Source: Spirochaetia bacterium
GTDB taxonomy: Bacteria; Spirochaetota; UBA4802; UBA5550
Direction: 5' to 3'
NCBI GenBank assembly: GCA_009885955.1
Contig: VFJS01000056.1
Location: 15,941-79,940, forward strand
Length of the DNA stretch: 64,000 bases
Part shown: positions 13,133 through 48,274 of the stretch, piece by piece
Position numbering within the stretch: the first letter of the stretch is position 1
Layout: every line of letters starts with the position of its first letter
The notes under the pieces: model-generated
What the model saw: the letters and a program-made list of their open reading frames with translations, nothing else
The model's database searches: none
What the model was told of the DNA's origin: nothing
Position numbers and translations under genes: made by a program

Positions 13133-13472
13133 ATTCCATCTCCCTGCAGTAAATTTGATAAAAAACTATACAATTACAATGAAATACTCTATCAGGGTAA
13201 GCACAATTGTTTATATTATAAAACATAGATAAAAAAATTGTCAACAAGTATATGAGCATTAAATGGCGCTATAAAGATTTACCTGAATATTTTATAAAAT
13301 TATCATTTATAAGTATATTTACTTATTGACTTTTATTAGTTATTCATAAATTGTACCCTGTCTGAATGCTATAAAATTTATATAGTACAGCTTTTATATG
13401 GATTCAATGATCATTTCAATATTCTAAAGTCATAATTATTTTTAAAGAAACAATTTTCAAGATTTTGATATT

Positions 13473-14813
13473 TTGAGGTATAAAATTGTGGAATGTCAGC
13501 GCAATATCATAAGAATATTAAGGTTACTGATTTTTTATTCTCTGTTTACCATCATTAATCCGGGGCAAGGCGAGGCTGCATCTAATTACAGCGGCTCTCT
13601 GGAGACTGCAGCATATACCTACAGTACAATGAAAAAAGATCTCAGCGGCACAGAGACAAATTACAGGCTCTATGAAAATGTTCTGTTCGATTTTAAATTT
13701 AATGACAGGGTGAGTTTCAGTACCAATAACAGGGTTATATACAGGGGCCTTGAAACCAGGAAAGATGCAAATGAGGATCCTCAAAGGCTGGACCTCAACA
13801 ACTACTATACATATTTTGACTTTAAAATCAGCGATTCTTTCAGCAGTCAGGTCGGGCGTATCATGGATGTGAACAACCTTGTTTTTTCCTACTATGACGG
13901 AATCAATGTCATCTATAAAAAGAAGTTCGGGGAGTACAGGCTCGGATTAAACATATATGGCGGCCTCCTGGTAGATGATGATTATCTTGAGGATGATAAC
14001 AGGGTATATGGATATAACAGCTTCGATGTACGAAATTTTTATATAGAACAGAGAAAGGGTGATTACATAAGCGGCGCTAAATTAAATCTTGCATCGAATA
14101 AAATCGGCGTCTTTACCCTGGATTACCAGACCACCATGAATGACAAGGCCATGGCTGAAAATTACGTCTCCATTGACTTTGACACCATGTTTTCAAAGCT
14201 GTTCAAAGCCTACGGCTACGGGACCTACGACATTGTTGACAAGAAATTATCCAATGGGCTTGGCGGGATGAGGCTATCACCGGGGAATCTTATTTCACTA
14301 TCGGCTGAGTATCAATATTACAGGCCCGTCTTTATTAAGGACAGTTTTTTCTGGGTCTACTTCACGCCGTACGGCCACCATGCGGTAACCGGTTCGCTGC
14401 TCCTCTTCTTTACACCAATTATAACATTTGATGTTAAATATTCCAGGCTGATTTTTGAAGGGGCCAATGAAACAGGCGATGAATTTTCAGCATCACTGGA
14501 AGACCGGAGCATCCTGGGATTCGGAATATTGATAACCGGCAGCGGCCTTAAAAGTCCCCTCGGAGACAAATACACCGGCCTGTGCACAATCAAAAGGCGC
14601 TTTTTTAATATTCTGGACATCAGCGTCGGCGGAGGTGCTGTATATTTTGATGAAACTCCTGAATCAACTATCCTGTCCAAGGCCTATGTGGGAAGAGCCG
14701 GTATCGGTCTCAGGATGGGCAATCTTATTATATCAGGAGACGCGGAATATTTTAACAATCCCAAATATAAGTATGATACCAGGGCCATCGTATCAGCTAA
14801 ATTTATATTTTAA
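13473..14813 (+). CDS. putative outer-membrane beta-barrel (porin-like) protein
   Basis: Signal-like N-terminus. Alternating aromatic/hydrophilic amphipathic beta pattern throughout, rich in Y/G/N/D. Ends with a C-terminal Phe (..AKFIF). Its stop is 16 bp before the multiheme cytochrome gene. Confidence 0.55.
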   Translation: MRYKIVECQRNIIRILRLLIFYSLFTIINPGQGEAASNYSGSLETAAYTYSTMKKDLSGTETNYRLYENVLFDFKFNDRVSFSTNNRVIYRGLETRKDANEDPQRLDLNNYYTYFDFKISDSFSSQVGRIMDVNNLVFSYYDGINVIYKKKFGEYRLGLNIYGGLLVDDDYLEDDNRVYGYNSFDVRNFYIEQRKGDYISGAKLNLASNKIGVFTLDYQTTMNDKAMAENYVSIDFDTMFSKLFKAYGYGTYDIVDKKLSNGLGGMRLSPGNLISLSAEYQYYRPVFIKDSFFWVYFTPYGHHAVTGSLLLFFTPIITFDVKYSRLIFEGANETGDEFSASLEDRSILGFGILITGSGLKSPLGDKYTGLCTIKRRFFNILDISVGGGAVYFDETPESTILSKAYVGRAGIGLRMGNLIISGDAEYFNNPKYKYDTRAIVSAKFIF

Positions 14814-14828
14814 CACAGGATAGAACTT

Positions 14829-16439
14829 ATGAAAAGATTTCACAGATATCTGTTTTCCATACTATTGATAATCGGCATATCCGCCACACTCCTTTTTTCC
14901 CAGAAGGAGAAAATTTTTCCTCATAAGACCCATAAAGACAACGGCGTGGACTGCGTGACCTGCCATCCCAATGCCAAAAAAAGTGTAAAGGCCGCCGATG
15001 ACCTTCTCCCGAAAGATGACGGTGTCTGTTCAAAGGAGTGCCATGACAAGGGCTTTTTGAGAAAGACAAAAATGTTCCGGTCAAAACCTGAATACGGCCT
15101 CAAATTTAATCACCAGGTCCATGTGGAGCAGGATCTGAAATGCATAAAATGCCACAAGGGGGTTGATGAAGCCGCATTCAAGACCGGTACAGCATTTCCA
15201 GGCATGAAGCTCTGTTTTGAATGCCATGATGATAAGAATGCCCCGAAGACATGCACCCTGTGTCATGTTGATAAAGTCCCGTTTGTTCACAAAGCCCATG
15301 CTGAAAAGAAAATTGACTGCAAAGTATGCCATAAGAAAGTTGATAAAAGCACCAAAACAAAAGACAATAACCTCCCCGATCCGGGGCTTTGCCTTGAAAA
15401 ATGCCATAAGCGGGATACCCTTGCTGTTACAAAGATGACCCTTTTCCCTGAAAAATCAAAGATAATTTTCAACCACCAGGTACATCTCGACCAGGATATT
15501 AAATGTATTCTCTGCCATGATGGCCTGGAAAAAGCTGCCTACAAAACCGGTACGGCATTTCCGAAAATGTCAGTCTGCTTTAAGTGCCATAACAACAAGG
15601 ATGCTCCGAAAAAATGTACCCTTTGCCACAGTGAGCCTGAGCAGTTCCCCCACGTTACCCATATCAAGAATGGACTTGACTGCGCAGGATGCCACAAGAC
15701 TATAAAAGTAAGCACAACAACCACCGGGGGGAGGGACATCCCGAAAAAAGAAATATGCAATGAGTGCCATGAAGCAAAGGACAAATATTCCGACGTGGTA
15801 TCGTTGCCTTATAAGCAGACATACCATTTCAACCACAAGGTGCATGTCACCGGCCAGTCGCTTGACTGCAAAGAGTGCCACAAGGTATTGTATGAGAAGA
15901 ACAGGTTTAGCCAGGCTGAAAACTTACCGAAAATGGAGTATTGTTTCGGATGCCACGACAATTCAACGGCCACACAGTACTGCATGCTTTGCCACCTGAA
16001 TCCGACCAAACCAAAGGACCATTATTTCGACTGGGGTACTATACATAAAGCAAAGGGAAACAGCGATCTGAAAGATTGTATATCGTGCCACATGAGTAAA
16101 AATTTCTGCATTTCCTGCCACAAGGGGATAAAGAAACCTGAAAATACTCATAATTCAAATTTTGAGATTACCCACAAGTTCGAAGCCAGGTCAAGTTTAA
16201 AAAACTGCTTCTCATGCCATACGGAGAGGCAGTGCAGGAACTGCCATATATCCAATAAGATCAGCATGAGCAGTTCGGAGCAGTATAAAAATCCCCATCC
16301 CTCAGGGTGGATAGACAGGACCAGCCCGAATTTTCATAAGAAACAGGCAAAGATGAATCTCAGGTCCTGCACCGCATGCCATACGAAAAATGACTGCGGA
16401 TTCTGCCATATCCCCCTGGGGCCTATAAAGAAGCGGTAA
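14829..16439 (+). CDS. multiheme cytochrome c (about 19 CxxCH plus 2 CxxxCH motifs)
   Basis: Sec signal peptide. Reiterated modules of paired heme-binding sites (CVTCH, CIKCH, CFECH, CTLCH, CKVCH, CILCH, CFKCH, CAGCH, CNECH, CKECH, CFGCH, CMLCH, CISCH x2, CFSCH, CRNCH, CTACH, CGFCH, and others). Confidence 0.9.
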   Translation: MKRFHRYLFSILLIIGISATLLFSQKEKIFPHKTHKDNGVDCVTCHPNAKKSVKAADDLLPKDDGVCSKECHDKGFLRKTKMFRSKPEYGLKFNHQVHVEQDLKCIKCHKGVDEAAFKTGTAFPGMKLCFECHDDKNAPKTCTLCHVDKVPFVHKAHAEKKIDCKVCHKKVDKSTKTKDNNLPDPGLCLEKCHKRDTLAVTKMTLFPEKSKIIFNHQVHLDQDIKCILCHDGLEKAAYKTGTAFPKMSVCFKCHNNKDAPKKCTLCHSEPEQFPHVTHIKNGLDCAGCHKTIKVSTTTTGGRDIPKKEICNECHEAKDKYSDVVSLPYKQTYHFNHKVHVTGQSLDCKECHKVLYEKNRFSQAENLPKMEYCFGCHDNSTATQYCMLCHLNPTKPKDHYFDWGTIHKAKGNSDLKDCISCHMSKNFCISCHKGIKKPENTHNSNFEITHKFEARSSLKNCFSCHTERQCRNCHISNKISMSSSEQYKNPHPSGWIDRTSPNFHKKQAKMNLRSCTACHTKNDCGFCHIPLGPIKKR

Positions 16440-16539
16440 TGTCGTGATGATGTATTAAAATTTAATCGTTCTGTTTTTTTTCTCTTGACTTGCGGATTAT
16501 GATAATTATTTTGATTTTCTAAATTTCAATTATTAATAC

Positions 16540-17277
16540 GTGAAAGAGGCTTTTATGATCAAGATTCAAAAAAGGGTGATATTTATATCCGCTATTATTT
16601 TCAGTTCTGTTCTGGCTTTTTCAGGAACCATCTATGCTTTGAAAGTCGTCATGAACGGGACTCCGCAAAAAAATGGTTTCAGGGACGACGTATTTACAAA
16701 TCTTAAAAGGGCTCAATGTGAGACATGCCACGGTGCTTCCCTGGCTGACAGGCACCATCAGCTCAAATCCGGGGCATCAAAAAATTGCAGCGGGTGCCAC
16801 GCAATCAATAACAAGTCCGGTGAAATGGGGGTAAATTTAAAGAAAGAATGTTCAGATTGTCATAAAGTCAGCCCTCACCACAAGACAAAAGCCGCTGTTG
16901 AAAAAAAATGCAGGGAGTGCCATGAATCATCAGGGGTAAGCGAATTCAAAATGCAGGGCCCGGAATATAAATTTTCAAAAATTACCCCGACCGTTAATTC
17001 CTGTTCTAAATGCCACAGGGCCGGTGATGTCGGCGGAGGCAGGGTTTATGGAATGAAGGATACCCATCACGGGACTCAGATCCAGGACTGCAATATGTGC
17101 CATGATGAAAACAAATCCAACACGAGCATCAGGGTGTGTGAAAGATGTCATGACGTTAAGGCTTTACATGCTGTAGAGGGCCACATCAAGAGCGAAAACT
17201 GCGCGCATTGCCATGATATGGAGGAGAAACAGCCAAATTCAAAATATGATGAACCGGTAAAAGAGTTAAAACAATAG
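16540..17277 (+). CDS. octaheme cytochrome c
   Basis: Signal peptide plus 8 CxxCH motifs (CETCH, CSGCH, CSDCH, CRECH, CSKCH, CNMCH, CERCH, CAHCH). Confidence 0.85.
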   Translation: MKEAFMIKIQKRVIFISAIIFSSVLAFSGTIYALKVVMNGTPQKNGFRDDVFTNLKRAQCETCHGASLADRHHQLKSGASKNCSGCHAINNKSGEMGVNLKKECSDCHKVSPHHKTKAAVEKKCRECHESSGVSEFKMQGPEYKFSKITPTVNSCSKCHRAGDVGGGRVYGMKDTHHGTQIQDCNMCHDENKSNTSIRVCERCHDVKALHAVEGHIKSENCAHCHDMEEKQPNSKYDEPVKELKQ

Positions 17278-36040: not shown

Positions 36041-38467
36041 CTACCCCTTAATCCTATACCTCTTCAAACTCAGGGAATTCGTCACAACCGATACCGAACT
36101 GAAGGCCATGGCTGCACCTGCAATAATCGGGTTGAGAAGCCCCATGGCAGCAAAGGGTATTCCAATGACATTATAGAAGAAGGCCCAGAAGAGGTTCTGC
36201 TTTATCTTCCTCATGGTCTTTTTTGACAGGAGTATGGCCGATACAGCGTTCTTCAAGCTGCTCCCTGCAAGGGTGATGTCGCCCGATTCTATGGCAATGT
36301 CGCTCCCGGTCCCCATGGCCATGCCGATGTCCGCGGTGGCAAGGGCAGGGGCGTCATTGATCCCGTCTCCCACCATGGCCACAACCATCCCCTTATTCTG
36401 GAGCTTTTTAATTTCGGCAGCCTTGTTCTCGGGAAGCACCTGGGAGATTATATGGCTGCTCTCTATGCCGGCCTGGGCCCCGATGGCGGCGGCGGTTCTT
36501 GCATTGTCTCCGGTCATCATGTAGACCTGTATGTTCATTGCCTGTAATTTTCCGATGGCCTCTGCCGAGTCTTCCCGTATGGTGTCTGCAACGGCGATGA
36601 TACCCATGAGCTTTCCGTCAGCGGCAATATAAATTGCGGTTTTCCCCTCTCCCTCGAGCCGATGAGAAATGGAATCTTCCGTAGTTATGGAGATATTATC
36701 CTCGGCCATGAGCGACCTTGTGCCTGCAAGGATGGAAAGGCCTTTGTACTGCGCCTTCACCCCCTTTCCCGGTATGGCAATGAAGTTTTCGGGGTCGTCG
36801 ATGCTGCCGGTCCTAACCTTTCCCATGGCATAGATGGCCCTCCCCAGGGGGTGTTCCGATTTTTTTTCCGCTACAGAAGCATATTCAATAAGGAGCCCTT
36901 CGTCTGTCCCGCCAAGGGGGATGATGTCGGTCACCGACGGTTCGCCCCTGGTTATGGTGCCGGTCTTGTCCAGGACCACGGCATGTATCTTCAGCGCCAG
37001 CTCCAGGCTCTCCACGTTTTTAATGAGAATGCCGTGTTCCGCACCAAGGCCTGTGCCCACCATGATGGCCGTGGGCGTTGCAAGCCCCAGGGCGCAGGGG
37101 CAGGCGATGACGAGCACCGAGACTGCTGCGATGATCCCCATGGAGGTATTCCCGAAAACAAGGCTCCAGAGGGCAAAGGTGATGATGGCGATGAGGAGCA
37201 CTGCAGGCACAAAGACCCCGGCAACTTTGTCTGCCAGTTTCTGTATGGGGGCCTTTGACCCCTGGGCCTCCTCCACTACTTTTATTATCCTTGCAAGTAC
37301 GGTATCCTTCCCGATCCTTGTGGCTTTAAAAGTAATGGACCCGTTCCGGTTTATGGTGCCGCCGATGATTCTATCTCCTTCCTTTTTGTCCACGGGCATG
37401 CTCTCGCCGGTAATCATGCTCTCGTCAACTGCTGAGAAGCCGCTCACCACCGTGCCGTCCACGGGGATCCTCTCGCCGGGCCGCACTGATATGATATCGC
37501 CGGTGATTACGCGTTCAATGGGGATCTCGGTTTCTTTCCCGTCCCTGATTACCGTTGCCGTTTTCGGCTGGAGCCCCATGAGCTTTTTTATGGCCTCGGA
37601 AGTCTTTCCCTTGGCCCCGGCTTCGAGATATTTTCCCAGGAGGACAAGGGTGATGATGAGCGCCGATGCCTCAAAGTAGAGGTCGCCTTTCACTCCCGCT
37701 GGAAGTTCCTTGAAAAATCCATTGTAAATGCTGAAAAAATATGCAGCGCTTGTGCCCATGGCTACCAGGAGGTCCATTCCGGGGCTCAGCGACTTCAGGC
37801 TTTTCCACCCGTTCCGGTAAAATCTCCACCCGATGAAAAACTGGACTGGAGATGCCACAATAAGCTGGAATAAGGGGTGGTGTAGGATATCGATATGGAA
37901 ATTGATGATCTCCAGGGTCATGGCAAGGATGAGAGGGGAACTGAGGACAATTGACAGTATGAGCCTCAGCCTGAGCCCGCGGATCTCTTTTTCACGGGCT
38001 TCTTTTTCATGGTCCCTGGAATCATGGCTTATCTCTTCGGCTTTGTACCCTGCGGTTTCAACAGCTTTTATCATTTCAGTTACAGAAGAGTTCAGGGGAT
38101 CATATTCCACAGTTGCCCGTTCCGTGGCCAGGTTTACTGAGGCATTTGTTACCCCGGGCACGCCTTTCAGGGCCTTTTCAACCCTGGCGGAACAGGAGGC
38201 GCAGGTCATGCCGAAAATGGCAATCTCAGCAGCGGCAGGACCTTCGACTGGCCTCTCCTTTTCTATAACTCCGAAGCCCAGGCCCCTGATTTTATCCATA
38301 ATTGCGGGTTCATCTATGACAGTATCGTCATATTCAACAGCAGCCCGTTCCATTGCGAGGTTTACGGCCACGCTTTTTATTCCGTCCTGTCCACCCAGTG
38401 TTTTCTCAATCCTGAGGGCGCACGAGGCGCAGGACATTCCGGTTATTCCAATGACATCTTTTTTCAT
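36041..38467 (-). CDS. copA: copper-translocating P1B-type ATPase with two N-terminal HMA domains
   Basis: GMSCASC and GMTCASC metal-binding motifs, CPC ([11 protein letters not shown]), DKTGT phosphorylation site, and GDGINDAP. 808 aa. Confidence 0.95.
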
Positions 38468-38602
38468 ATGGTTATTTCACTCCAGAAGGCATATACTCAT
38501 ACTCCCTAGGAGTATATATAGTAATTTGTACACCTGAAGTCAAGCTTTTAATTGTGAAATAGTGTTTAAAATTAGGAACATCCCGGTATTTTCCAGTTGC
38601 GG

Positions 38603-38737
38603 AGACATTACTCTGAGCTGGTGGTAAACGGGTAGGGTTTGCTCTGAGCCAGAGGCGTTACTCTGAGCATGGCTAGTTGGTTAAGGTTTTGCTCTGAGCA
38701 AGGCTAAGTAATTGAGACATTAGACATTACTCTGAGC
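38603..38737. promoter_or_regulatory. array of five (T/G)(A/G)CTCTGAGC motifs in the copA/thiS-like divergent intergenic region
   Basis: Motif starts at 38610, 38640, 38659, 38690 and 38728 (spacings 30, 19, 31, 38 bp). Two copies are preceded by GACAT. A TTGACA/TTGACT promoter-like region follows at 38778-38826. Confidence 0.4.
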
Positions 38738-38875
38738 ATCATTTCTAAAAAAATTCCATTTTTCTAAAAATTTTTCCTTGACAAAAAAAGGCAATACTTG
38801 ACTATTCTTATCAAGTTAGTAGGATTGTTTGTTTCAATCATTTATTGACCCTAAATTATATTACACGAGGCTGGT

Positions 38876-39094
38876 ATGAAAATAATAATTAATGGAAAAG
38901 AAGATTCAATAACTCCTTTGGATGGGAAGATAAATATTAACGAACTTCTTGCAATAAAAAATGTTGAAATGCCGGATATGGTATCGGTAGAACTGAATGA
39001 AGTTATATTGAACAGGGCCGATTTCGTTAATACCTTTATAAATCATGGTGATAGGGTGGAATTCCTCTATTTCATGGGCGGAGGGGCTGCCTGA
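38876..39094 (+). CDS. ThiS/MoaD-family sulfur carrier protein with a C-terminal extension after Gly-Gly (..FMGGGAA)
   Basis: 72-aa beta-grasp-sized protein. Ends in GG followed by extra residues (G)AA, as in CysO/HcyS-type carriers that need JAMM processing. Confidence 0.7.
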   Translation: MKIIINGKEDSITPLDGKININELLAIKNVEMPDMVSVELNEVILNRADFVNTFINHGDRVEFLYFMGGGAA

Positions 39095-39134
39095 GATTAA
39101 CCCCTGGTTTAGGGTAAAACTATGGAGGCTGAGT

Positions 39135-39962
39135 ATGGATTTTACAGAAGAACAGGTTGAGAGGTACAGCAGAAACATCCTTCTTGATGATGTGGGCGGC
39201 ACAGGCCAGAGGAAGCTCCTCGATTCCAGCGTCCTGATAATAGGCGCCGGCGGGCTTGGATCTCCGGCTGCGCTTTATCTGGCAGCTGCCGGCGTGGGCA
39301 CTATCGGAATTGTTGATGATGACCATGTTGAGCTCTCAAATCTGCAGAGGCAGGTAATCCACTTTACTTCGGATATCAGCAGGCCCAAGGCCGAATCGGC
39401 AGCGGAAAAGATGAGGCTCCTCAATCCCGGTGTAACAGTCATCCCTGTCATGGAGAGGCTCATGGCCGGGAACATAGTATCAGTCATAAAGGATTATGAC
39501 TTCATCATCGACGGCACCGATAATTTTCCTTCCAAGTTCCTCATTAACGATGCCTGCGTGCTTGGAGGAAAACCATTTTCCCATGGCGGCATCCTGAGGT
39601 TCTACGGGCAGACCCTGACCTATGTGCCGGGGTCAGCATGCTACCGGTGCCTCTTTCAGACTCTGCCGCCCAGGGGGACTGTCCCTTCATGCGGTGAAGC
39701 CGGCATACTTGGCGTGGTGGCCGGTATCCTCGGGATGATCCAGGCATCGGAAGCGCTCCGGTACATCCTGGGCATCGGGGAGCTCCTCACCAACAGGCTC
39801 CTGTATATGGACCAGCTTACCGTGGAGTTCAGGAAACTGAATACAAAGCCCAACCCCAACTGCCCGGTGTGCGGCGAAAACCGCACCATTCTTGAGCCAG
39901 TGGACTATGAACAGCCGGCCTGCAGTTTGAAAGAGGGGCCTGCCGCAAAGGTAAACCTTTGA
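39135..39962 (+). CDS. ThiF/MoeB-family E1-like adenylyltransferase (no rhodanese domain)
   Basis: RBS GGAGG then ATG at 39135. Nucleotide-binding GAGGLGSPAALYLAAAGVG. Zinc motif CYRC .. CPVC. Confidence 0.85.
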   Translation: MDFTEEQVERYSRNILLDDVGGTGQRKLLDSSVLIIGAGGLGSPAALYLAAAGVGTIGIVDDDHVELSNLQRQVIHFTSDISRPKAESAAEKMRLLNPGVTVIPVMERLMAGNIVSVIKDYDFIIDGTDNFPSKFLINDACVLGGKPFSHGGILRFYGQTLTYVPGSACYRCLFQTLPPRGTVPSCGEAGILGVVAGILGMIQASEALRYILGIGELLTNRLLYMDQLTVEFRKLNTKPNPNCPVCGENRTILEPVDYEQPACSLKEGPAAKVNL

Positions 39963-39990
39963 TGATGATCATAAGAAGAGGAGCATAAAG

Positions 39991-42702
39991 GTGGCAATGA
40001 GAATAAAGAGCAGTATAATCGCCGGGATGATAAGACACGCTGAAAATGATGCCCCCCTGGAAGCCTGCGGATACCTTGCCGGCAGAGGCAATCATGCGGT
40101 AAAAATGTACGCCATGGCCAACATGGATGGCAGCCCTGAGCACTATACCTTCAGCCCGGAAGAACAGTTCCGCGTGATAAAGGATGCAAGGAAAGAGGGG
40201 CTGGATATTGTCGCGGTTTATCACAGCCACCCCCGGTCGCCTTCTGTAATGTCTGCAGAGGACATGAAGCTTGCCTTTGATAAATCCATAAGCTATGTTA
40301 TCATCTCCCTGGAAAAGGGGACGGCGGACCTGAAATCCTACAAGTTTACAAAAGGGACTGTTGAACAGGAGGACATTGAAGAAGTGAAACTGAATTTTTA
40401 TGAAATACCTGAATTGTACATACACGAGCTCGATGCCTTTGAGAAAGTGACGAAGGACTTCATAGAAGGGTCTCTCGCCCAGGTGGAATACAGGGCCCAC
40501 AGGGTCAGTTTCGGGATCTATGAGCAGAGGACAAACGGCACCTACATGGTTCGTATCCGCTGCACGGCCGGCGGCATGACCCCTGCCCAGCTCGCCGTTA
40601 CCGCTGATCTCGCCGGCCGATACGGTTCAGGCAGGATCCATGTGACAACGAGGCAGGAGGTCCAGATTCATGACGTGAAGGTTGACGGGCTGGGCCCGGT
40701 ATTGAGGGAGCTTTTAACCATCGGCCTTTCCACGCGGGGGGGCGGCGGTAATACTGTGCGGAATATTACGGTTCCGGAGGATTCAGGCATCAGTGAAGAC
40801 GAAATTTTTGATGTGACACCCCATTCAGTTGCTCTAACCTCCAGGCTCATCAGGGACCAGGATTCATGGAACCTGCCGAGGAAATTCAAGATCGGTTTTG
40901 CTTCAGCCCCGGGGCACCGGGAGAGAATTATCGTGCAGGACCTGGGATTTGAAGCAGTGATCAGGGACGGGAGAAGGGGCTTCAGGGTATTCGGAGCAGG
41001 CGGGATGGGCGCGAAGCCCATGATGGCAGAACTTATACATGACTTCATCGAAGAGAAGGATATATACCGCGTCTCAACGGCAATGAAACGGCTTTTTGAC
41101 AAACATGGGAACAGGAGGAACAGGTATGCTGCAAGGCTCAGGTTTGTCTGGAAAAATCTTGGAAGGAAGGAATTCCTCAGGCTCTACAACGGGGAGCTGG
41201 ATCAGCTTGATAAGGATGATATGGGTCTGTTGTTCAATGAAATAATAAATGAAGGGACATCGACGGCGCTGGAATCCGTGAACGGAGAGGGACCTGAATT
41301 CGAATTATGGAAAAGCAGATATGTACTGGGTCAGAAGCAGGCCGGGCTTACATCGGTCCTTATCCCCCTTAGCCTGGGTGATATAAGCTCAGTGGATGCT
41401 CTGGAACTTGCGCGTTTTCTTGAACCCTTCGGGGAGAATGTACTACGCTTTTCCCAGGCGCAGAATATAGTCCTGAGAAATATACCGGAAGGGCTCCTGG
41501 GGAATGTCAGCCGGCATGTGGCAAAGCGCTATCCCCTTGCATCGGGGCCGTCGCTTTCAGGAAATGCCGTGTCATGCGCAGGCGCGGACACATGCAGGCT
41601 GGGCCTGTGCCTCTCCAGAAATCTCCTCTCCGCCGTTTACTCTGAGCTTGGAAAGACCGGTGTGGATCTGGATGGATTGAAGGATGTGAAAGTCCGGATT
41701 TCCGGATGCCCCAATGCCTGCGGCCAGCACCACGGCGCAGACATAGGCTTTTTCGGAAAAGTTTCGCGGAAGGATGACAGGTCTTATCCTGCATATTATA
41801 TTGTCGCGGGCCAGGGGCTGAACAGCGGTACTCCTGTTTTTGCCGAAAGGCTGGGTGAGATAAGCGCAAGGAATGTACCATTATTTTTACGCGAGATTCT
41901 TGAAGCCTATGCGGCTGCGGGAGGCGCGGAAACAGGTTTCAGTGGATTTATTGAATCCGGAAGGAATGGTAAGATCAGGACAATCCTGGACAAATACAGC
42001 CAGGTCCCGGGTTTTGATGAAGATAAAAATTACTATTTTGACTGGGGGGCCGATGAGGCCTTCTCCATCGCGGGCATGGGAAGGGGGGAATGCGCTGCCG
42101 GGCTCTTTGACATCATAGACCACGACGCCGACCTGATCAGGAAAAATATTGAAGGCCTCAGCTCTGAAAGGGATGAGGATAAAATCAGAACGTCCCTGGC
42201 GGATATTGTCTTTTCATCATCAAGGATGCTCCTTGTGACAAAGGGGATTGAGCCTCGTGGCAGGGCCGAAGTTTTCAGCCAATTCATTGGTTCATTCATT
42301 AAAAAAGGATTGGTTGAAGAAAAATATTCAGGCATTGTGGAGATGGCCGGTGACGGAGATCTGGACGGCCTTCTAAAAGAGAGGGATCTGGTTGTTGAAC
42401 TTTCACAGGCAGTAACCGCCCTTTATAATTCCATGGATAATTCACTCAGGTTCCCCGGGGAGGGGGAGTTAAAAACCCCTGCGGCAAAATTCAAGGACCT
42501 GAGAGGGGTGAAGTGCCCTTTGAACTTTGTCAAGGTAAAGCTCATCCTTGAAACCATGAAGGGCGGTGAGACACTTGAGATATTCCTGGACAACGGGGAG
42601 CCTATAGAAAATGTCCCCAGGTCGATTCAGAATCAGGGCGATGAGATTGTTAGCCGGAAAAGGAACGGGGATTACTGGTCAGTGACAATTAAGAAATCAT
42701 GA
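39991..42702 (+). CDS. tri-domain fusion: JAMM/MPN+ metalloprotease, siroheme-[4Fe-4S] sulfite(/nitrite) reductase hemoprotein, and TusA-like sulfur-relay domain
   Basis: JAMM motif E .. HSHPRSPSVMSAED (H-x-H-x7-S-x2-D). Sulfite reductase ferredoxin-like half-domains (GTYMVRIRCTAGGMTPAQL .. RIHVTTRQ) and the siroheme/Fe-S Cys motif CAGADTCRLGLC .. SGCPNACGQH. C-terminal TusA-like LRGVKCPLNF .. GETLEIFLDNGEPIENVP. The start is GTG 39991 or ATG 39997. Confidence 0.85.
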   Translation: MAMRIKSSIIAGMIRHAENDAPLEACGYLAGRGNHAVKMYAMANMDGSPEHYTFSPEEQFRVIKDARKEGLDIVAVYHSHPRSPSVMSAEDMKLAFDKSISYVIISLEKGTADLKSYKFTKGTVEQEDIEEVKLNFYEIPELYIHELDAFEKVTKDFIEGSLAQVEYRAHRVSFGIYEQRTNGTYMVRIRCTAGGMTPAQLAVTADLAGRYGSGRIHVTTRQEVQIHDVKVDGLGPVLRELLTIGLSTRGGGGNTVRNITVPEDSGISEDEIFDVTPHSVALTSRLIRDQDSWNLPRKFKIGFASAPGHRERIIVQDLGFEAVIRDGRRGFRVFGAGGMGAKPMMAELIHDFIEEKDIYRVSTAMKRLFDKHGNRRNRYAARLRFVWKNLGRKEFLRLYNGELDQLDKDDMGLLFNEIINEGTSTALESVNGEGPEFELWKSRYVLGQKQAGLTSVLIPLSLGDISSVDALELARFLEPFGENVLRFSQAQNIVLRNIPEGLLGNVSRHVAKRYPLASGPSLSGNAVSCAGADTCRLGLCLSRNLLSAVYSELGKTGVDLDGLKDVKVRISGCPNACGQHHGADIGFFGKVSRKDDRSYPAYYIVAGQGLNSGTPVFAERLGEISARNVPLFLREILEAYAAAGGAETGFSGFIESGRNGKIRTILDKYSQVPGFDEDKNYYFDWGADEAFSIAGMGRGECAAGLFDIIDHDADLIRKNIEGLSSERDEDKIRTSLADIVFSSSRMLLVTKGIEPRGRAEVFSQFIGSFIKKGLVEEKYSGIVEMAGDGDLDGLLKERDLVVELSQAVTALYNSMDNSLRFPGEGELKTPAAKFKDLRGVKCPLNFVKVKLILETMKGGETLEIFLDNGEPIENVPRSIQNQGDEIVSRKRNGDYWSVTIKKS

Positions 42703-42735
42703 AAATAAAAATAAAATCGTAAAAAGGCGGATTCA

Positions 42736-42963
42736 ATGGTTGAACAGCGCTGCAGAAGCATAGTCAAAACTCTATCGTGGAGAATAACAGGTACGATAGC
42801 TACCACACTGATATCCTTCCTGATAACCGGGAGCTTTGCCTTTGCATTATCAATAGGAACCTTTGAGTTTATCGCAAAAATGTTCCTCTACTATTTTCAT
42901 GAAAGGCTCTGGAACAGGATTAACCTGGGAAGGACTGCTCCGAAGAATGACTATCAGATATGA
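42736..42963 (+). CDS. DUF2061-like small membrane protein
   Basis: 75 aa, two TM helices. TLSWRITGT .. FLITGS pattern. Confidence 0.4.
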   Translation: MVEQRCRSIVKTLSWRITGTIATTLISFLITGSFAFALSIGTFEFIAKMFLYYFHERLWNRINLGRTAPKNDYQI

Positions 42964-43065
42964 TCATTTTAGAAAAAATACAATTTGCCACAGAGGCTCA
43001 GAGACACAGAGAAATGGTAATGGATTTAATAAAGGCTGGAATAAGTCAGTCATGAAGAAAGAAAT

Positions 43066-43088
43066 TACTCACGGATTTGCACGGATAA
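43066..43088. promoter_or_regulatory. TCACGGATTCA-family motif, site d
   Basis: TACTCACGGATTTGCACGGATAA about 120 bp upstream of cysH. Confidence 0.3.
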
Positions 43089-43134
43089 ACATGGATAAAA
43101 TTGAATATGAATGATATCAATATTTGGAAAAAAA

Positions 43135-43168
43135 AATCCGTGAAAATCTGTGTGAATCCGTGAGCAAA
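43135..43168. promoter_or_regulatory. TCACGGATTCA-family motif, site e (inverted relative to site d)
   Basis: Reverse complement reads TTGCTCACGGATTCACACAGATTTTCACGGATT. About 40 bp upstream of cysH. Confidence 0.3.
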
Positions 43169-43203
43169 TATCAAAAACTGAAAAGTTCAATTGGATAAAG
43201 ATT

Positions 43204-43944
43204 ATGATAATGCCTGAAGATTTGAAATCATTGCAGAGAGAGTTTTCCGGTGCAAAGCCCCGGGAGCTGCTTGAACACTTCATGAAGATACACGGTTCCC
43301 GGATAGCCCTTGCATCGAGCCTGGGGGCTGAAGACCAGGCCCTGACACACATGATGCTGGGGATAGACCCCGGGGCAGTGATATTCTTCATCGATACCGG
43401 TAGGCTCCATCAGGAAACCTATGATACTGCTGCGAAGACCATGAAAAGATACGGCATGAGATACCAGGTCTTTTTTCCTGACAACAAGAGGGTCGAGGAG
43501 ATGACCGGCGCCCACGGGCCAAATTTATTTTATGAGTCCGTGGCGCTGAGGGAGACATGCTGCCAGGTAAGAAAAGTTGAACCCCTGGAAAGGGCCCTCT
43601 CGAATATGGATGCATGGGTCACTGGCCTGCGCAGGGAACAGTCCCCTGCAAGGGCCGGACTGGAAGTCATTGAGTGGGACCCGGCGCGGAAGATGGTAAA
43701 GCTGAACCCCCTGGCATCATGGAGCAATGAGGAGCTCTGGAGCTACATCAGGGAACATGCGGTACCGTACAACAGCCTCCATGACCGCAACTTCCCCAGC
43801 ATAGGATGTGCGCCCTGCACCCGGGCAATAGGGGAAGGCGAAGATACACGGGCAGGGAGATGGTGGTGGGAGGATTCAGGGGAAAAAGAATGCGGCCTCC
43901 ATGTAAAGAGTCAAGAAACAGATGACAGGGGGGGATCGATATGA
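43204..43944 (+). CDS. cysH: adenylyl-sulfate (APS) reductase, thioredoxin-dependent, Fe-S type (CysH family)
   Basis: PP-loop SLGAEDQAL. Cys pair CC (ETCCQVRK) plus CAPC for a [4Fe-4S] cluster. C-terminal KECGLH catalytic motif. Confidence 0.85.
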
Positions 43945-44822
43945 TAATTCTTGATGAGCTGGAAAGCCAGAGTATCTATATTCTGAGAGAGGCCTACAGG
44001 GAATTTAAAAGCCTCTGCATGCTCTGGTCAATAGGAAAGGACAGCACGGTGTTATTATACCTGGCGCGGAAAGCCTTTTTCGGCCATGTTCCCATGCCGC
44101 TGGTACATATCGACACCAGGTATAAGATACCGGAGATGATAGAGTACAGGGACAACCTGGTGAAGGAATGGAAACTGAACCTCATATACGGCATGAACCG
44201 GAAAGCCATTGATGAAAAGAGGACCTTTCCAGACGGCAATGTTGACCGTTTAACCTGCTGTAAAAGTCTGAAGAGCGACGCACTGAGGCAGACGCTGAAC
44301 GGGGAGGGGGAGAGGTTCATCTTCAGTCATTCGGCCGGGAAATACATCCCCGATACCTCGCGCGAGGCCTATACCGGGGTCATCGTGGGAGTACGGGCGG
44401 ATGAGGAGGGGAGCCGTTCCAAAGAGCGCTATTTCTCTCCAAGGGACAGTGAGAGCGACTGGCGCATCGAGGACCAGCCGCCGGAATTCTGGAACCAGTA
44501 TAAGACTGACTTTTCCTCCGGCACCCACGTGAGGATCCACCCCCTCCTCGACTGGACCGAACTGAACATATGGGAATATATCGAAAGGGAGAACATCGGT
44601 GTCGTGTCACTCTATTTCGACAAAGGGGAAGGGATCCGGTACCGGTCACTGGGGTGCTACCCGTGCACGAAACCTGTGGAGTCCAAATCGAAAAATGTCC
44701 CGGAAATAATCGAAGAACTCAGGAGCGGCAGGTTCTCCAATATAGCCGAGAGGTCGGGAAGGGAGCAGGATAAAGACGGGGGCGGGACCCTGGAGACATT
44801 GAGGCGTGAGGGATATATGTAA
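43941..44822 (+). CDS. cysD: sulfate adenylyltransferase subunit 2
   Basis: PAPS-reductase-like fold with SIGKDS PP-loop. 293 aa. Its stop overlaps the cysN start (TAATG). Confidence 0.9.
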
Positions 44823-46654
44823 TGGAACAGATGGAACAGATAAAACAGACAAAACAGATAAAACAGATAGATCAGATGAATATCGTGGTGATAGGCCACG
44901 TGGACCACGGCAAGAGCACGGTGATCGGCAGGCTCCTCTCGGACACGGGCTCCCTGCCCGAAGGCAAACTGGAACAGGTGAAGATGCAGTGCCGTAAAAG
45001 CTCCAGGCCCTTTGAGTACGCCTTTCTCCTTGATGCCCTGAAGGACGAGCAGTCACAGGGGATAACCATCGATTCGGCCAGGTGCTTCTTTAAAACAGCA
45101 AAGAGGAATTATATCATCATAGACGCTCCGGGGCACATAGAATTTTTGAAGAACATGATAACCGGAGCATCCAGGGCAGAGGCCGCGCTCCTTGTCATTG
45201 ACGCGAATGAAGGGGTCCAGGAGAATTCACGGAGGCACGGTTTCATGGCTTCCCTCCTGGGGATCAAACAGCTCGTTGTCCTGGTGAACAAGCTCGATAT
45301 TTCAGGATACAGCGAGTCTGTGTATAACGGGATCAGGTCCGAGTTCACCATGTTTCTTGATAGCATAGAGGTGAGCCCTCTGGAATTTATTCCCATATCG
45401 GCGCGGGAGGGGGAAAACATCGCGGTGAAGTCGGATAAGATGCCCTGGTACAGGGGGATGACCGTGATCCAGCGGCTCGATGAATTCAAAAAGGAAAAGC
45501 CCCTTTTTCATAAGCCCTTCAGGATGCCTGTGCAGGACATATACAAGTTCACCATGTACGGCGACGACAGGAGGATAGTGGCTGGTACCGTATCCTCAGG
45601 GAAAATAAGCGCCGGCGATGAAGTTGTATTCCTCCCTTCGGGAAAAAAATCAGAAATAAATTCGGTAGAGGCTTTTAACTCTCCTGTTGAGGTCTCCGTT
45701 TCGGCAGGCAGGGCCGCTGGATTCACCCTGAAGACCCAGATATACATCCACCCCGGGGAGATCATGTGCAGGACTGGCGATGAGCTTCCATTCACCTCAA
45801 CGGCCTTCAGGGCGAACCTCTTCTGGGTCGGGAAGAGCCCCATGATACCGGGAAAGAAGTACAAGCTCAAGGCCGGAACCATGAAGGCCTCGGTGTACCT
45901 CAAGGAAATAATCAATATCATCGATGCCTCATCCCTTGACGAGGGCGCAAGCAGATCGGAGATCCTCAGGCACGACGTTTCGGAGTGTATTTTACAGACT
46001 CTGAAACCCGTATCCTTTGACCGTTTCAGCGACAATGAGCTCACGGGAAGGTTTGTTATCGTGGACGGATATGAAATTGCCGGCGGCGGGATAATCATGG
46101 AGCCCGTACAGGAATCCCTTTCCTATCTCGCGGAACATGCGGTGCGCAGGGACTACCGTTGGGTCAAGGGGAATGTGGCTATGGCCGCGAGGCACACACG
46201 GTTCAGCCAGAAGCCCCGGATCATCGTGTTCACCGGCGAAGAAACATTGGAATGGGAGGGTCTGGCGCAGGCCCTGGAACAGGACCTCTGGAGGGAGGGG
46301 CGGAATGTCTATTACCTGGGGCTTTCGAACATTTTGAGAGCCATTGACAATGACGGGCCCCGGGCATCCATAGACAGGGAGGAGGAGATATGCCGCCTCG
46401 GGGAATCGGCCCACCTCCTTGCCGATGCAGGCCTCATTGTCATAACCACCATTTCGGGACTGGATAATTACGAGTACGGCATGCTGAAGCTCATCTGCGA
46501 GCCCCATGAGATCCTTCTTATCAATGCAGGGATCGTTTCAGCTGACACCATTGACGCTCTGTCCATTGACAGCGGCCTGGAAGCCGGTGAGGCCCTTTCA
46601 AAGATAAAAACCTCTCTCAGGGATAGGGATATCATCCCCGACTTCCAGATTTGA
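44822..46654 (+). CDS. cysN: sulfate adenylyltransferase subunit 1 (GTPase) fused to a degenerate APS-kinase-like C-terminal domain
   Basis: G1 box [19 protein letters not shown]-terminal ~190 aa aligns with CysC, but the P-loop is replaced (GLSGSGKST becomes GEETLEWEG) and the DGD motif is lost. N-terminal [18 protein letters not shown] is encoded by a 9-bp-unit microsatellite. Confidence 0.85.
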
Positions 46655-46800
46655 AATGTTTTATTTCTGCCATCCAGCTGAGCCATGGGCCCGGTGGGTA
46701 TATGCCGAAGGCGATTCCGAAGAGGCATATGACACATGTTACCCTGACCCACCGGTGTCTGAACCAGCCCCGGCTTGTCCATATTGAATATATGTTCGCA

Positions 46801-46827
46801 GTGAAATCCGAGTAAATCCGTGAACCG
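46801..46827. promoter_or_regulatory. TCACGGATTCA-family motif, site f
   Basis: Reverse complement reads CGGTTCACGGATTTACTCGGATTTCAC. About 170 bp upstream of the LarE-like gene. Confidence 0.3.
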
Positions 46828-46985
46828 ATATTTATATTCCCGGATAGAGCGAAAAAATCCCAAAATTTTTTTCTTGTAAAAAATAATCAATTATTACAAT
46901 TGTAACTGGTTTATCAGTCACGATATGCCGGCCTGAAGTTTATTATCGGCATAGAGTAATTCATGTTGCGCAGACAGATGAAGCA

Positions 46986-47864
46986 TTGGAGAATTCAATG
47001 AAACGCATAGATTCCCTTAGATTCGATGACCGGGAACTGAATAAAAAAATTGACGGCCTTGCCGCTATCCTCAGGGATATGAAGAGCCTCGTCGTGGCCT
47101 TTTCCGGCGGCGTGGACAGCACATTTCTCCTGAAAGCGGCATGGGATATTTTAGGCGGAAATGTCCTGGCAGTTATTGCCAGGTCCGAGACCTATCCCGA
47201 AGGTGAATACCGGGACGCCCTTGCCTTTGCCGCGGAAATTGACGCCCCCTTCCTTGTCATAGATACCGGGGAGCTGAAAAACGAAAACTTTTCATCAAAC
47301 CCCCCTGACCGGTGTTATTACTGCAAAAGCGAGCTTTTCTGCAAGCTTACTGAAATAGCCCGGGAAAGGGGCCTGGCTTTTGTTGCCGACGGCTCGAACC
47401 TTGATGACACTGAAGATTTCAGGCCCGGTACAAGGGCATCCAGGGAGATTGGCGTGAGGAGCCCTTTAAAGGAGGCCGGGTTCACCAAGGATGACATCCG
47501 CCGCGTTTCCAGGGAACTGGGCCTCTCCTCCTGGGACAAACCCTCGCAGGCATGCCTCTCGTCTCGGTTTCCCTACGGTACGGAAATTACGCAGGAGAGG
47601 CTCGACATGATTTCCCTTGCCGAGGAATTTCTTGCAGGCCTGGGCCTCAGGTGCTGCAGGGTAAGGTATCACGGCGACATAGCGCGCATAGAAGTGCCGG
47701 CTGCGGATATGCAGATGTTTATCGACCCTGAACTGGCCGGCAGGATATACGGCAGGTTCAATGAAATCGGTTTTACCTATGTCACACTGGACATCAAAGG
47801 CTACAGGACCGGAAGCATGAATGAGGTCCTTCCGGATTCAGTAAAAGATATCAGGTCAGCATGA
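46986..47864 (+). CDS. LarE-like PP-loop ATP pyrophosphatase (sulfur transferase family, TIGR00268-like)
   Basis: PP-loop VAFSGGVDS. Cys motif CYYC .. C (PDRCYYCKSELF .. SQACLSS), suggestive of the Fe-S-dependent LarE subgroup. The start may be the internal MKRIDSL. Confidence 0.7.
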   Translation: MENSMKRIDSLRFDDRELNKKIDGLAAILRDMKSLVVAFSGGVDSTFLLKAAWDILGGNVLAVIARSETYPEGEYRDALAFAAEIDAPFLVIDTGELKNENFSSNPPDRCYYCKSELFCKLTEIARERGLAFVADGSNLDDTEDFRPGTRASREIGVRSPLKEAGFTKDDIRRVSRELGLSSWDKPSQACLSSRFPYGTEITQERLDMISLAEEFLAGLGLRCCRVRYHGDIARIEVPAADMQMFIDPELAGRIYGRFNEIGFTYVTLDIKGYRTGSMNEVLPDSVKDIRSA

Positions 47865-48274
47865 TTTCAGTTTCATCAAAGGGGATCTACGGGCTTGCGG
47901 CGCTCTTTATTCTGGCCCGGAACTACGAGAGCGGGCCCCTCCGCATAAAAGATATCTCCTCGGGCGAGGGAATACCCAGGCAGTACCTGGAGCAGCTGCT
48001 TATAAAGCTCAAGAAAAGCGGGCTGGTAAAGAGCTACAGGGGCAAGGACGGGGGGTATTCGTTGAAAAAAAGGCCTTCCGAGATTACCGTGTACGAGGCG
48101 CTGGTCTGCCTTGAAGGGCCAATGGAGCTTGCTTCATCAACCACCAGAACCGGCACTCTCCATTTTTTCTGGCAAAGGGCGCAGCAGGAAATCATAGAAA
48201 TTTTCGACATCACCCTCGAAGACCTCATCATGGAGCATGACAGGCTCAACAACCAGGTTGTTTATGATATATGA
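47861..48274 (+). CDS. Rrf2-family transcriptional regulator without the Fe-S Cys triad (CymR-like)
   Basis: wHTH (SSGEGIPRQYLEQLLIKLKKSGLVKSYRGKDGGYSL). Only one Cys in the region where IscR-type proteins have three. 4-bp overlap with the LarE-like gene. Confidence 0.85.
   Translation: MISVSSKGIYGLAALFILARNYESGPLRIKDISSGEGIPRQYLEQLLIKLKKSGLVKSYRGKDGGYSLKKRPSEITVYEALVCLEGPMELASSTTRTGTLHFFWQRAQQEIIEIFDITLEDLIMEHDRLNNQVVYDI

Follow-up and report, generated by a model that had tools for sequence, protein, structure and literature searches.

How sulfur reduced from sulfate is handed to a carrier protein, as free sulfide or bound to protein, is the question raised by a nine-gene locus in the DNA of an uncultured anaerobic Spirochaetota bacterium. 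The locus lies in a stretch of 64,000 nucleotides (hereafter the window; Spirochaetia bacterium, GenBank assembly GCA_009885955.1, contig VFJS01000056.1, positions 15,941 to 79,940), where nine open reading frames (ORFs) run head-to-tail on the plus strand from 38876 to 48274. They encode a ThiS-like sulfur carrier, a ThiF-type E1 enzyme, a single protein that joins a JAMM metalloprotease, a sirohaem sulfite reductase (SiR) and a TusA sulfur-relay domain, a DUF2061 membrane protein, CysH, CysD, CysN, a LarE-family protein and an Rrf2-family regulator (Table 1). An earlier note, drawn up from the sequence alone, had read these genes as an undescribed variant of thiocarboxylate-dependent cysteine or homocysteine biosynthesis. 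Our analysis indicates that the locus is probably an operon of the ThiS-ThiF-JAMM-SiR/TusA (HcyS/HcyF/HcyD/Sir) type, which would carry sulfur from sulfate to the thiocarboxylate of a carrier protein.

All nine genes listed in the earlier note are where it placed them, and their Pfam and NCBIfam domain content agrees with its list. The carrier ends in ...FLYFMGGG followed by a two-residue extension, Ala-Ala, and most of 62 carriers from related clusters have YFMGGG and a tail of 0–11 unconserved residues; such a conserved stem with variable tails is as would be expected of carriers trimmed by a JAMM protease. The carrier's match to the TIGR01683 'thiS' model would mislead automatic annotation, and no thiamine biosynthesis domain (ThiG, ThiH/ThiO, ThiC or ThiE) was found in the scanned ORFs of the window. 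The only domain that Pfam found in the E1 is ThiF, with no rhodanese domain. This enzyme has the motif GAGGLG, two CxxC pairs that make up a zinc tetracysteine (C169, C172, C243 and C246) and a loop cysteine, C186. Against each curated E1 equivalog in NCBIfam its score falls short of the cutoff, and it is 63% identical to the E1 of a Sedimentisphaerales cluster (L003) that served as our comparison locus.

The fusion protein starts either at GTG 39991, giving 903 residues, or at ATG 39997, as in public gene calls, giving 901; residues are numbered here from the GTG. Its JAMM motif (E24, H78, H80, S88 and D91) is intact and invariant among fused relatives, and the nearest solved structure to this domain is 2kks (E 2e-42). 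In the reductase module, the cluster and sirohaem cysteines (C529, C535, C573 and C577) are invariant in 120 of 120 relatives, the 120 best clusters related to the fusion protein, from which our family alignment and tree were built; the anion-binding Arg/Lys residues are invariant as well. The module falls under the curated cutoffs of NF007126 'NirA family' (211 bits, cutoff 523), CysI (106, cutoff 757) and Sir (75, cutoff 732), and the family to which it belongs has no dedicated NCBIfam model. We refer to that family as SiR-MID-TusA, after the middle domain (MID) that lies between reductase and TusA. Farther along the locus, CysH has the motif CC119-120 ... C202xxC205, and CysD is 73% identical to its Sedimentisphaerales orthologue. 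The C-terminal third of CysN (46190–46654) gives a partial APS_kinase match in which the P-loop GxxGxGKS/T is lost, and this apparent degeneration fits a route through adenosine 5'-phosphosulfate (APS) rather than 3'-phosphoadenosine 5'-phosphosulfate (PAPS). Relatives have an equally weak kinase match.

Is the fusion protein real, and is its reductase a sulfite reductase? The earlier note had named two ways in which it might not be: the long ORF could be a frameshift or assembly artefact of separate genes, or the reductase could be a nitrite reductase (NiR) unrelated to the carrier. The first idea gains some colour from related loci (the best 80 of 589 relatives of the fusion protein, from a scan of one genome per species, with ORFs called stop-to-stop and classed by phmmer). 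In 74 of these 80 loci, a sample biased by the use of the JAMM motif as one of two search patterns, JAMM and SiR-TusA are encoded by separate genes that tightly abut, and in three they are fused. However, an identical fusion protein came out of two assemblies made from independent read sets, and 27 further clusters of the 120 share all four Pfam domains at 41–48% identity with the reading frame kept. Because the same protein comes from two read sets and these further clusters conserve the frame, we conclude that the fusion is genuine, as the earlier note had held, and we rejected the artefact reading. The nitrite reductase reading draws on the plant nitrite reductases among the best sequence matches in the PDB. 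The best PDB relatives of the module are tobacco NiR (3b0l) and Mycobacterium tuberculosis NirA/SirA (1zj8; E ~1e-62), and the latter, an equally good match, is a sulfite reductase. Moreover, the gene is flanked by ThiF on one side and by DUF2061-CysH-CysD-CysN on the other, as in dozens of genomes, and on this synteny we rejected the nitrite reductase reading too. Artefact and nitrite reductase together retain hardly any credibility as explanations.

How unusual is the fusion? TusA is joined to the reductase in all 120 relatives and is thus the norm of the family; the JAMM fusion alone is uncommon, at 28 of 120. The earlier note was right that protease, reductase and relay domain share one polypeptide, and the TusA part of that arrangement is not peculiar to this window. 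We built a neighbour-joining tree from the reductase-to-TusA part of the 120 members; on it the 28 fused proteins fall into eight separate clades, and Fitch parsimony gives a minimum of eight state changes from an unfused root, a rough figure since the tree is without support values. In unfused relatives the JAMM and reductase genes abut, a few bases apart. That JAMM was fused to the reductase about eight times independently argues that the two act together physically.

The gene neighbourhoods of related reductases strongly support the proposed pathway. The conserved order is Rrf2, a CysM-like PALP protein, ThiS, MetY, ThiF, in some cases a stand-alone TusA, JAMM, SiR-MID-TusA, DUF2061, CysH, CysD and CysN. 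We found this cluster in Planctomycetota, Omnitrophota, Acidobacteriota (including the cultured Telmatobacter bradus DSM 23630), Bacteroidota, Desulfobacterota, Marinamargulisbacteria, Fibrobacterota, Calditrichota, Leptospirales, other Spirochaetota and Helicobacteraceae. In the sample of 80 loci, many of them truncated at contig borders, SiR-MID-TusA is present in 80, ThiF in 71, ThiS in 62, MetY in 61, CysH in 40, Rrf2 in 35, PALP in 34, DUF2061 in 29, an extra stand-alone TusA in 17 and LarE in one. The two sulfhydrylase classes, MetY and PALP, are the partners that bear out the earlier note in linking the locus to CysO/HcyS-type sulfate assimilation by way of a thiocarboxylate. Three SiR-TusA proteins picked by reductase similarity alone all adjoin ThiS, ThiF, JAMM and sulfhydrylases. 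The Sedimentisphaerales locus has the operon in full, including the triple fusion seen in the window, together with genes for a CysM-like protein, MetY and a sulfate ABC transporter, and its proteins are 44–73% identical to their counterparts in the window. In three Helicobacteraceae metagenome-assembled genomes (L069, L078 and L080), JAMM is followed by SiR-MID-TusA, and in two of them (L078 and L080) neither ThiS nor ThiF was found within the flanks examined.

Two side observations concern the composition of these clusters. In two loci (L073 and L074), ThiS and MetY lie in one ORF of 478–481 aa, a carrier-sulfhydrylase fusion unless it is an artefact of stop-to-stop ORF calling. DUF2061 recurs across phyla between the TusA-tailed reductase and CysH (the 29 loci counted above), which makes it a recurrent partner of sulfate assimilation.

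From these gene and domain identities, intact motifs and conserved synteny we infer the chemical steps as follows. CysD and CysN would convert sulfate to APS, and CysH would reduce APS to sulfite; PAPS would not be made, because the kinase-like domain of CysN is degenerate. The ferredoxin-type sirohaem module of the 901/903-residue protein would then reduce sulfite. The JAMM domain would cut Ala-Ala off the carrier, exposing ...GGG-COOH, and the rhodanese-less E1 would adenylate the exposed carboxylate. The reduced sulfur would be handed on to give the carrier thiocarboxylate (carrier-COSH), which sulfhydrylases of the MetY or CysM type, encoded outside the window, would consume. JAMM may also hydrolyse the resulting carrier-homocysteine or carrier-cysteine adduct, and the Rrf2 protein would repress the operon.

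What might hold the sulfur between sirohaem and carrier? Two cysteines in the C-terminal part of the fusion protein are candidates. C701 lies in the motif GxGEC[SA]AG[LIM][FY]D at the start of the first long helix of the MID, C842 lies next to P843 in TusA, and both C701 and C842-P843 are invariant in 120 of 120 relatives. Sequence searches of Pfam and the PDB gave no match for the MID itself, which is ~160 residues long. From an alignment of 24 C-terminal regions, AlphaFold2 predicts a confident helical bundle (mean predicted local distance difference test score, pLDDT, 86.9; bundle blocks ~87–98). By fold comparison alone the predicted domain matches HEPN, and the model has the four-helix up-down bundle of that fold. 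The HEPN RNase motif Rx4-6H is absent (R745 is invariant in SRMLL[IV]T[RK]G, with no His 4–6 residues downstream), so we take the likeness of the modelled domain to HEPN as one of fold only. Between bundle and TusA, residues 826–832 have pLDDT <50 in a full-length model of mean pLDDT 82.9, and such a linker fits a flexible TusA tether.

A profile of the MID-TusA region, searched against 1.84 billion representative proteins, matched 260 clusters at E<=1e-30. The listed matches, 150 in number, end at or near the C-terminus of proteins that are ~760–900 aa long or of shorter chains, which we took to be N-truncated fragments; among these listed matches the MID-TusA module appears specific to the SiR-MID-TusA reductase family. 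In the library of papers that we searched, nothing relevant turned up on a fusion of JAMM with SiR or on one of TusA with an assimilatory SiR, and we found no earlier description of the HEPN-like domain and its invariant cysteine.

The C701/C842 pair suggests a persulfide relay, and we tentatively favour a two-cysteine version of it for the transfer of sulfur, as a route that is possible rather than probable. Nascent HS- would open a disulfide between C701 and C842, leaving TusA with a persulfide that would in turn attack the acyl-adenylate of the carrier, and C701 would resolve the resulting acyl-disulfide, freeing carrier-COSH as the disulfide re-forms. Such a cycle would be redox-neutral, and it would explain both the invariance of the two cysteines and the lack of a rhodanese in the E1. 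The acyl-disulfide chemistry of ThiF/ThiI and of MOCS3 runs parallel to it. In an alternative version, partly reduced sulfur would be captured at the sirohaem in a DsrC-like manner. SiR-HEPN-like-TusA would then be the assimilatory counterpart of DsrAB/DsrC, with C701 and C842 capturing sulfur as a persulfide or trisulfide at the sirohaem or beside it and passing it directly to the adenylated carrier, a proposal that we put forward with considerable doubt. If it is true, sulfate is assimilated without free sulfide in hundreds of lineages with the SiR-HEPN-like-TusA module, and the JAMM fusion marks a physical 'thiocarboxylate synthase' complex. Sulfur transfer without free sulfide would be plausible.

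Several observations weigh against this account of the locus. In vitro loading of the Wolinella carrier reportedly used free bisulfide made by Sir, so that a relay is chemically not required. Two loci (L022 and L042) carry SiR-MID-TusA without ThiS, ThiF or JAMM within 10 kb. In Acidobacteriota (L084, at 12340–15284, as well as L021 and L024), SiR-MID-TusA adjoins a CysM-like PALP, a JAB protease, a 94-aa ThiS/CysO-like carrier and a ThiF-rhodanese (MoeZ-like) E1; because SiR-MID-TusA co-occurs there with a rhodanese-bearing E1, TusA is not simply a replacement for rhodanese. Finally, the window has no sulfhydrylase, and thus no gene for a MetY- or CysM-type consumer of the thiocarboxylate. 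Neither tblastn with the PALP and Cys_Met_Meta_PP proteins of the Sedimentisphaerales locus (E<=0.01) nor Pfam scans of the other large ORFs found a homologue of PALP (CysK/CysM) or Cys_Met_Meta_PP (MetY) across the 64 kb, which agrees with what the earlier note had stated. This is not unique to the window, because four relatives with full 10-kb flanks (L020, L039, L042 and L081) also lack MetY and CysM.

The same material bears on a rival explanation, in which free HS- is released to a CysK or MetY encoded elsewhere, the carrier is thiocarboxylated by free sulfide, and the MID and TusA cysteines are accessory, serving regulation, protection of the sirohaem site or docking. The Wolinella reconstitution, which is said to have required Sir-derived bisulfide only, would be consistent with it, as would the SiR-MID-TusA genes that have no carrier genes beside them. 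The Leptospira literature likewise reads the cluster as a plain pathway from sulfate to sulfide and on to CysK/MetY (10.1101/2024.09.25.614947). Yet an accessory role hardly accounts for two cysteines kept without exception throughout the family alignment, for a MID-TusA module confined to this one reductase family among the listed profile matches, or for the tight linkage of the reductase with ThiS, ThiF and JAMM. We consider release of free sulfide unlikely, and tentatively prefer the two-cysteine relay.

A second rival takes the absence of MetY and CysM from the window as its starting point. Here the adjacent LarE would draw sulfur from carrier-COSH, in the manner of TtuA/TtuB, and the product would be a thiocarboxylated cofactor instead of cysteine or homocysteine. 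The position of larE between cysN and rrf2, overlapping rrf2, favours such a role, and so does its cysteine complement. LarE has an SGGVDS PP-loop together with C110xxC113 and C189; in an alignment with Lactobacillus plantarum LarE, CxxC replaces W..A and a cysteine stands one position after Cys176. This marks it as the tri-cysteine [4Fe-4S] catalytic type and not the sacrificial Cys176 type. The CxxC...C set is that of [4Fe-4S] LarE enzymes of the Thermotoga maritima type, which require an external sulfide donor (PMC11796402), and the window protein passes the equivalog cutoff for LarE. Unlike in such a system, no LarA, LarB or LarC was found within the 64 kb, and the link with the sulfate-assimilation cluster is not conserved: the single LarE match among the 80 loci is a 67-aa partial ORF, and the four full-flank relatives that lack sulfhydrylases have no LarE either. 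An AT-rich, promoter-like gap of 330 bp separates larE from cysN, so larE and rrf2 probably form a transcription unit of their own. LarE thus adjoins the cluster without being one of its conserved members, and its service as sulfur acceptor is improbable. The same AT-rich gap contains a 12-bp palindrome, TTACAATTGTAA, upstream of larE.

We conclude that the locus is best read as a thiocarboxylate-forming sulfate-assimilation operon whose missing sulfhydrylases, JAMM fusion and LarE/Rrf2 arrangement are local variations. Its features, with those of the surrounding DNA, are collected in Table 1.

Table 1. Features of the sulfur locus and its surroundings, in window coordinates
Feature	Coordinates	Strand	Evidence or remark
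Large multihaem cytochromes c (c7/c3/MtrC-like, 536 and 245 aa)	13473–17277		Preceded by a 446-aa ORF without Pfam match
RACo-type corrinoid-enzyme activator, 762 aa	23754–26042		N-terminal 2Fe-2S ferredoxin domain
Copper P-type ATPase (copA)	36041–38467	-	Divergent, upstream of the sulfur locus
Inverted repeat ATATACTCATA / TAGGAGTATAT	38491–38517		Directly upstream of copA
Repeat array, copA-thiS intergenic	38603..38744		Five exact copies of TT[A/G]CTCTGAGC within 130 bp, starting at 38608, 38639, 38658, 38689 and 38727
Promoter-like site TTGACT-16-TAGGAT	38796..38825	+	Overlapped by ACTTGAC-N7-GTCAAGT-like palindrome (ACTTGACTATTCTTATCAAGT)
Palindrome ACTTGA-N9-TCAAGT	38796–38816		Perfect 6-bp arms
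ThiS/HcyS-like sulfur-carrier protein, 72 aa	38876..39094	+	Pfam ThiS E 2e-8; TIGR01683 46 bits, cutoff 37
E1-like adenylyltransferase, ThiF/MoeB/HcyF type, 275 aa	39135..39962	+	Pfam ThiF E 6e-81
JAMM-SiR-TusA fusion, single ORF	39991–42702	+	Prok-JAB, two NIR_SIR_ferr/NIR_SIR repeats, C-terminal TusA
JAMM/MPN+ metalloprotease domain of fusion, residues 3–132	39997..40386	+	Prok-JAB E 1e-21
Ferredoxin-type (NirA-like) sirohaem-[4Fe-4S] sulfite reductase module of fusion, residues ~146–668	40426..41994	+	Pfam, NCBIfam and PDB matches
Middle domain (MID) of fusion, residues ~669–826, unannotated	41995..42468	+	HEPN-like helical bundle, predicted fold
TusA/SirA sulfur-relay domain of fusion, residues 833–903 and stop codon	42487..42702	+	TusA E 6e-17; Cys842-Pro843 motif
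DUF2061 small membrane protein, 75 aa	42736..42963	+	Pfam E 3e-22
CysH, Fe-S-type APS reductase	43204..43944	+	TIGR02055 254 bits, cutoff 235
CysD, sulfate adenylyltransferase small subunit	43941..44822	+	NF003587 345 bits, cutoff 195
CysN, sulfate adenylyltransferase GTPase subunit	44822..46654	+	TIGR02034 355 bits, cutoff 336
12-bp palindrome in AT-rich gap	about 46893–46904		Upstream of larE
LarE-family PP-loop sulfur insertase	46986..47864	+	TIGR00268 337 bits, cutoff 150
Rrf2-family regulator	47861..48274	+	Pfam Rrf2 E 6e-28

How the locus might be regulated is suggested by its two ends. The Rrf2 gene closes the locus on its 3' side, where it shares 4 nt with larE. Because the protein has a single Cys, it is predicted to be without the Fe-S ligand set; it is 31.5% identical to the Rrf2 of the Sedimentisphaerales cluster, which carries the 3-Cys set, and is most like CymR (93 bits, under the CymR cutoff). 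Upstream of thiS, the palindrome with perfect 6-bp arms overlaps the best -35 hexamer and is a candidate Rrf2 operator; it is not enriched within the window. Farther upstream, the array of TT[A/G]CTCTGAGC repeats stands out, in that none of 100 shuffles reached the window-wide count of this repeat. The 11-nt repeat was not found in the related loci of other species, and the array may be a set of binding sites for some regulator, perhaps one outside the sulfur system. An Rfam scan of the whole window found no riboswitch (SAM or other leader) and no other RNA family.

The flanking genes, copA on one side and an outer-membrane efflux protein and a NUDIX hydrolase on the other, have no relation to sulfur amino acids. 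The inverted repeat directly upstream of copA looks like the operator of a metal regulator. For GlyQ, encoded in the window, the best named homologues (80–85% identity) all belong to Spirochaetota metagenome-assembled genomes. Elsewhere in the window we found markers of an anaerobic, motile life: 2-oxoacid:ferredoxin oxidoreductase, a flavodiiron protein, multihaem cytochromes c, the RACo corrinoid activator and FliG. For a Spirochaetota genome the cluster of large multihaem cytochromes is unusual; it suggests that electrons are transferred to the periplasm or outside the cell. No corrinoid methyltransferase was found among the scanned neighbours of the RACo-type activator.

For the window itself, the outcome is mostly correct annotation rather than discovery. 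The pathway class is known yet poorly annotated, and databases label its genes ThiS, MoeB or 'sulfite reductase beta subunit'. Across many phyla, our survey supports the TusA-tailed reductase as a signature enzyme of protein-thiocarboxylate sulfur assimilation, and it raises the question of whether assimilatory sulfite reduction passes its sulfur on as a protein-bound persulfide or as free, toxic sulfide.

How does the locus compare with systems already described? The neighbourhood was recognized by Iyer, Burroughs and Aravind in 2006 (PMC1779556), whose Table 1, row 4e, lists a ThiS/MoaD-like carrier, a JAB protease, a rhodanese-less E1, SirA (which is TusA), sulfite reductase, PAPS reductase, ATP sulfurylase and O-acetylhomoserine sulfhydrylase, with Wolinella succinogenes among the genomes. 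The E1 is described there as always without rhodanese and SirA as always there, and SirA is predicted to substitute for rhodanese, with the sulfur ending on the ThiS-like protein (PMC1779556). Measured against that description, the window has the carrier, JAB, rhodanese-less E1, SirA/TusA, sulfite reductase, APS/PAPS reductase and ATP sulfurylase, and it lacks the genes for O-acetylhomoserine sulfhydrylase and sulfate transport. The paper also reports ThiS-SiR fusions in actinobacteria, and its passages on this neighbourhood make no mention of a JAMM-SiR fusion, of the HEPN-like domain or of its cysteine (PMC1779556). The 'undescribed variant' of the earlier note is thus only partly right: the neighbourhood, its link with TusA and the pathway are in the literature, and the reductase-TusA fusion is a constant of the family.

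With the DsrAB-DsrC and TusA-DsrEFH-DsrC relays, the locus shares a sirohaem reductase with a cysteine-bearing, sulfur-carrying partner and the use of TusA as a relay. It differs from them in that its enzyme is an assimilatory NirA-type monomer to which the partner domains are covalently fused.

The closest biochemical precedent comes from Wolinella succinogenes, whose HcyS/HcyD/HcyF/Sir/MetY pathway to homocysteine Krishnamoorthy and Begley are said to have reconstituted in work that appeared in JACS in 2011. There, HcyD, a JAMM protease, reportedly removes the C-terminal Ala of HcyS and HcyF adenylates HcyS; bisulfide from Sir reportedly gives HcyS-COSH, MetY joins HcyS-COSH with O-acetylhomoserine, and HcyD frees homocysteine. 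The window shares with this system a ThiS-like carrier extended past Gly-Gly, a JAMM protease, a rhodanese-less E1, a sirohaem sulfite reductase and clustered sulfate-activation genes. In contrast to it, JAMM is fused to the reductase here, the extension is Ala-Ala, and neither the locus nor the rest of the 64 kb has MetY. To our knowledge, the roles of TusA and of the middle domain were not addressed in the Wolinella work.

The CysO/MoeZ/Mec+/CysM system of M. tuberculosis has in common with the locus a carrier thiocarboxylate as sulfide donor, a NirA-type sulfite reductase and a JAMM protease (Mec+) that frees the amino acid. It differs in that MoeZ has its own rhodanese, the reductase is unlinked and without TusA, and CysO has no C-terminal extension. 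One of the Acidobacteriota loci described above (L084) joins a set of the M. tuberculosis type with SiR-MID-TusA.

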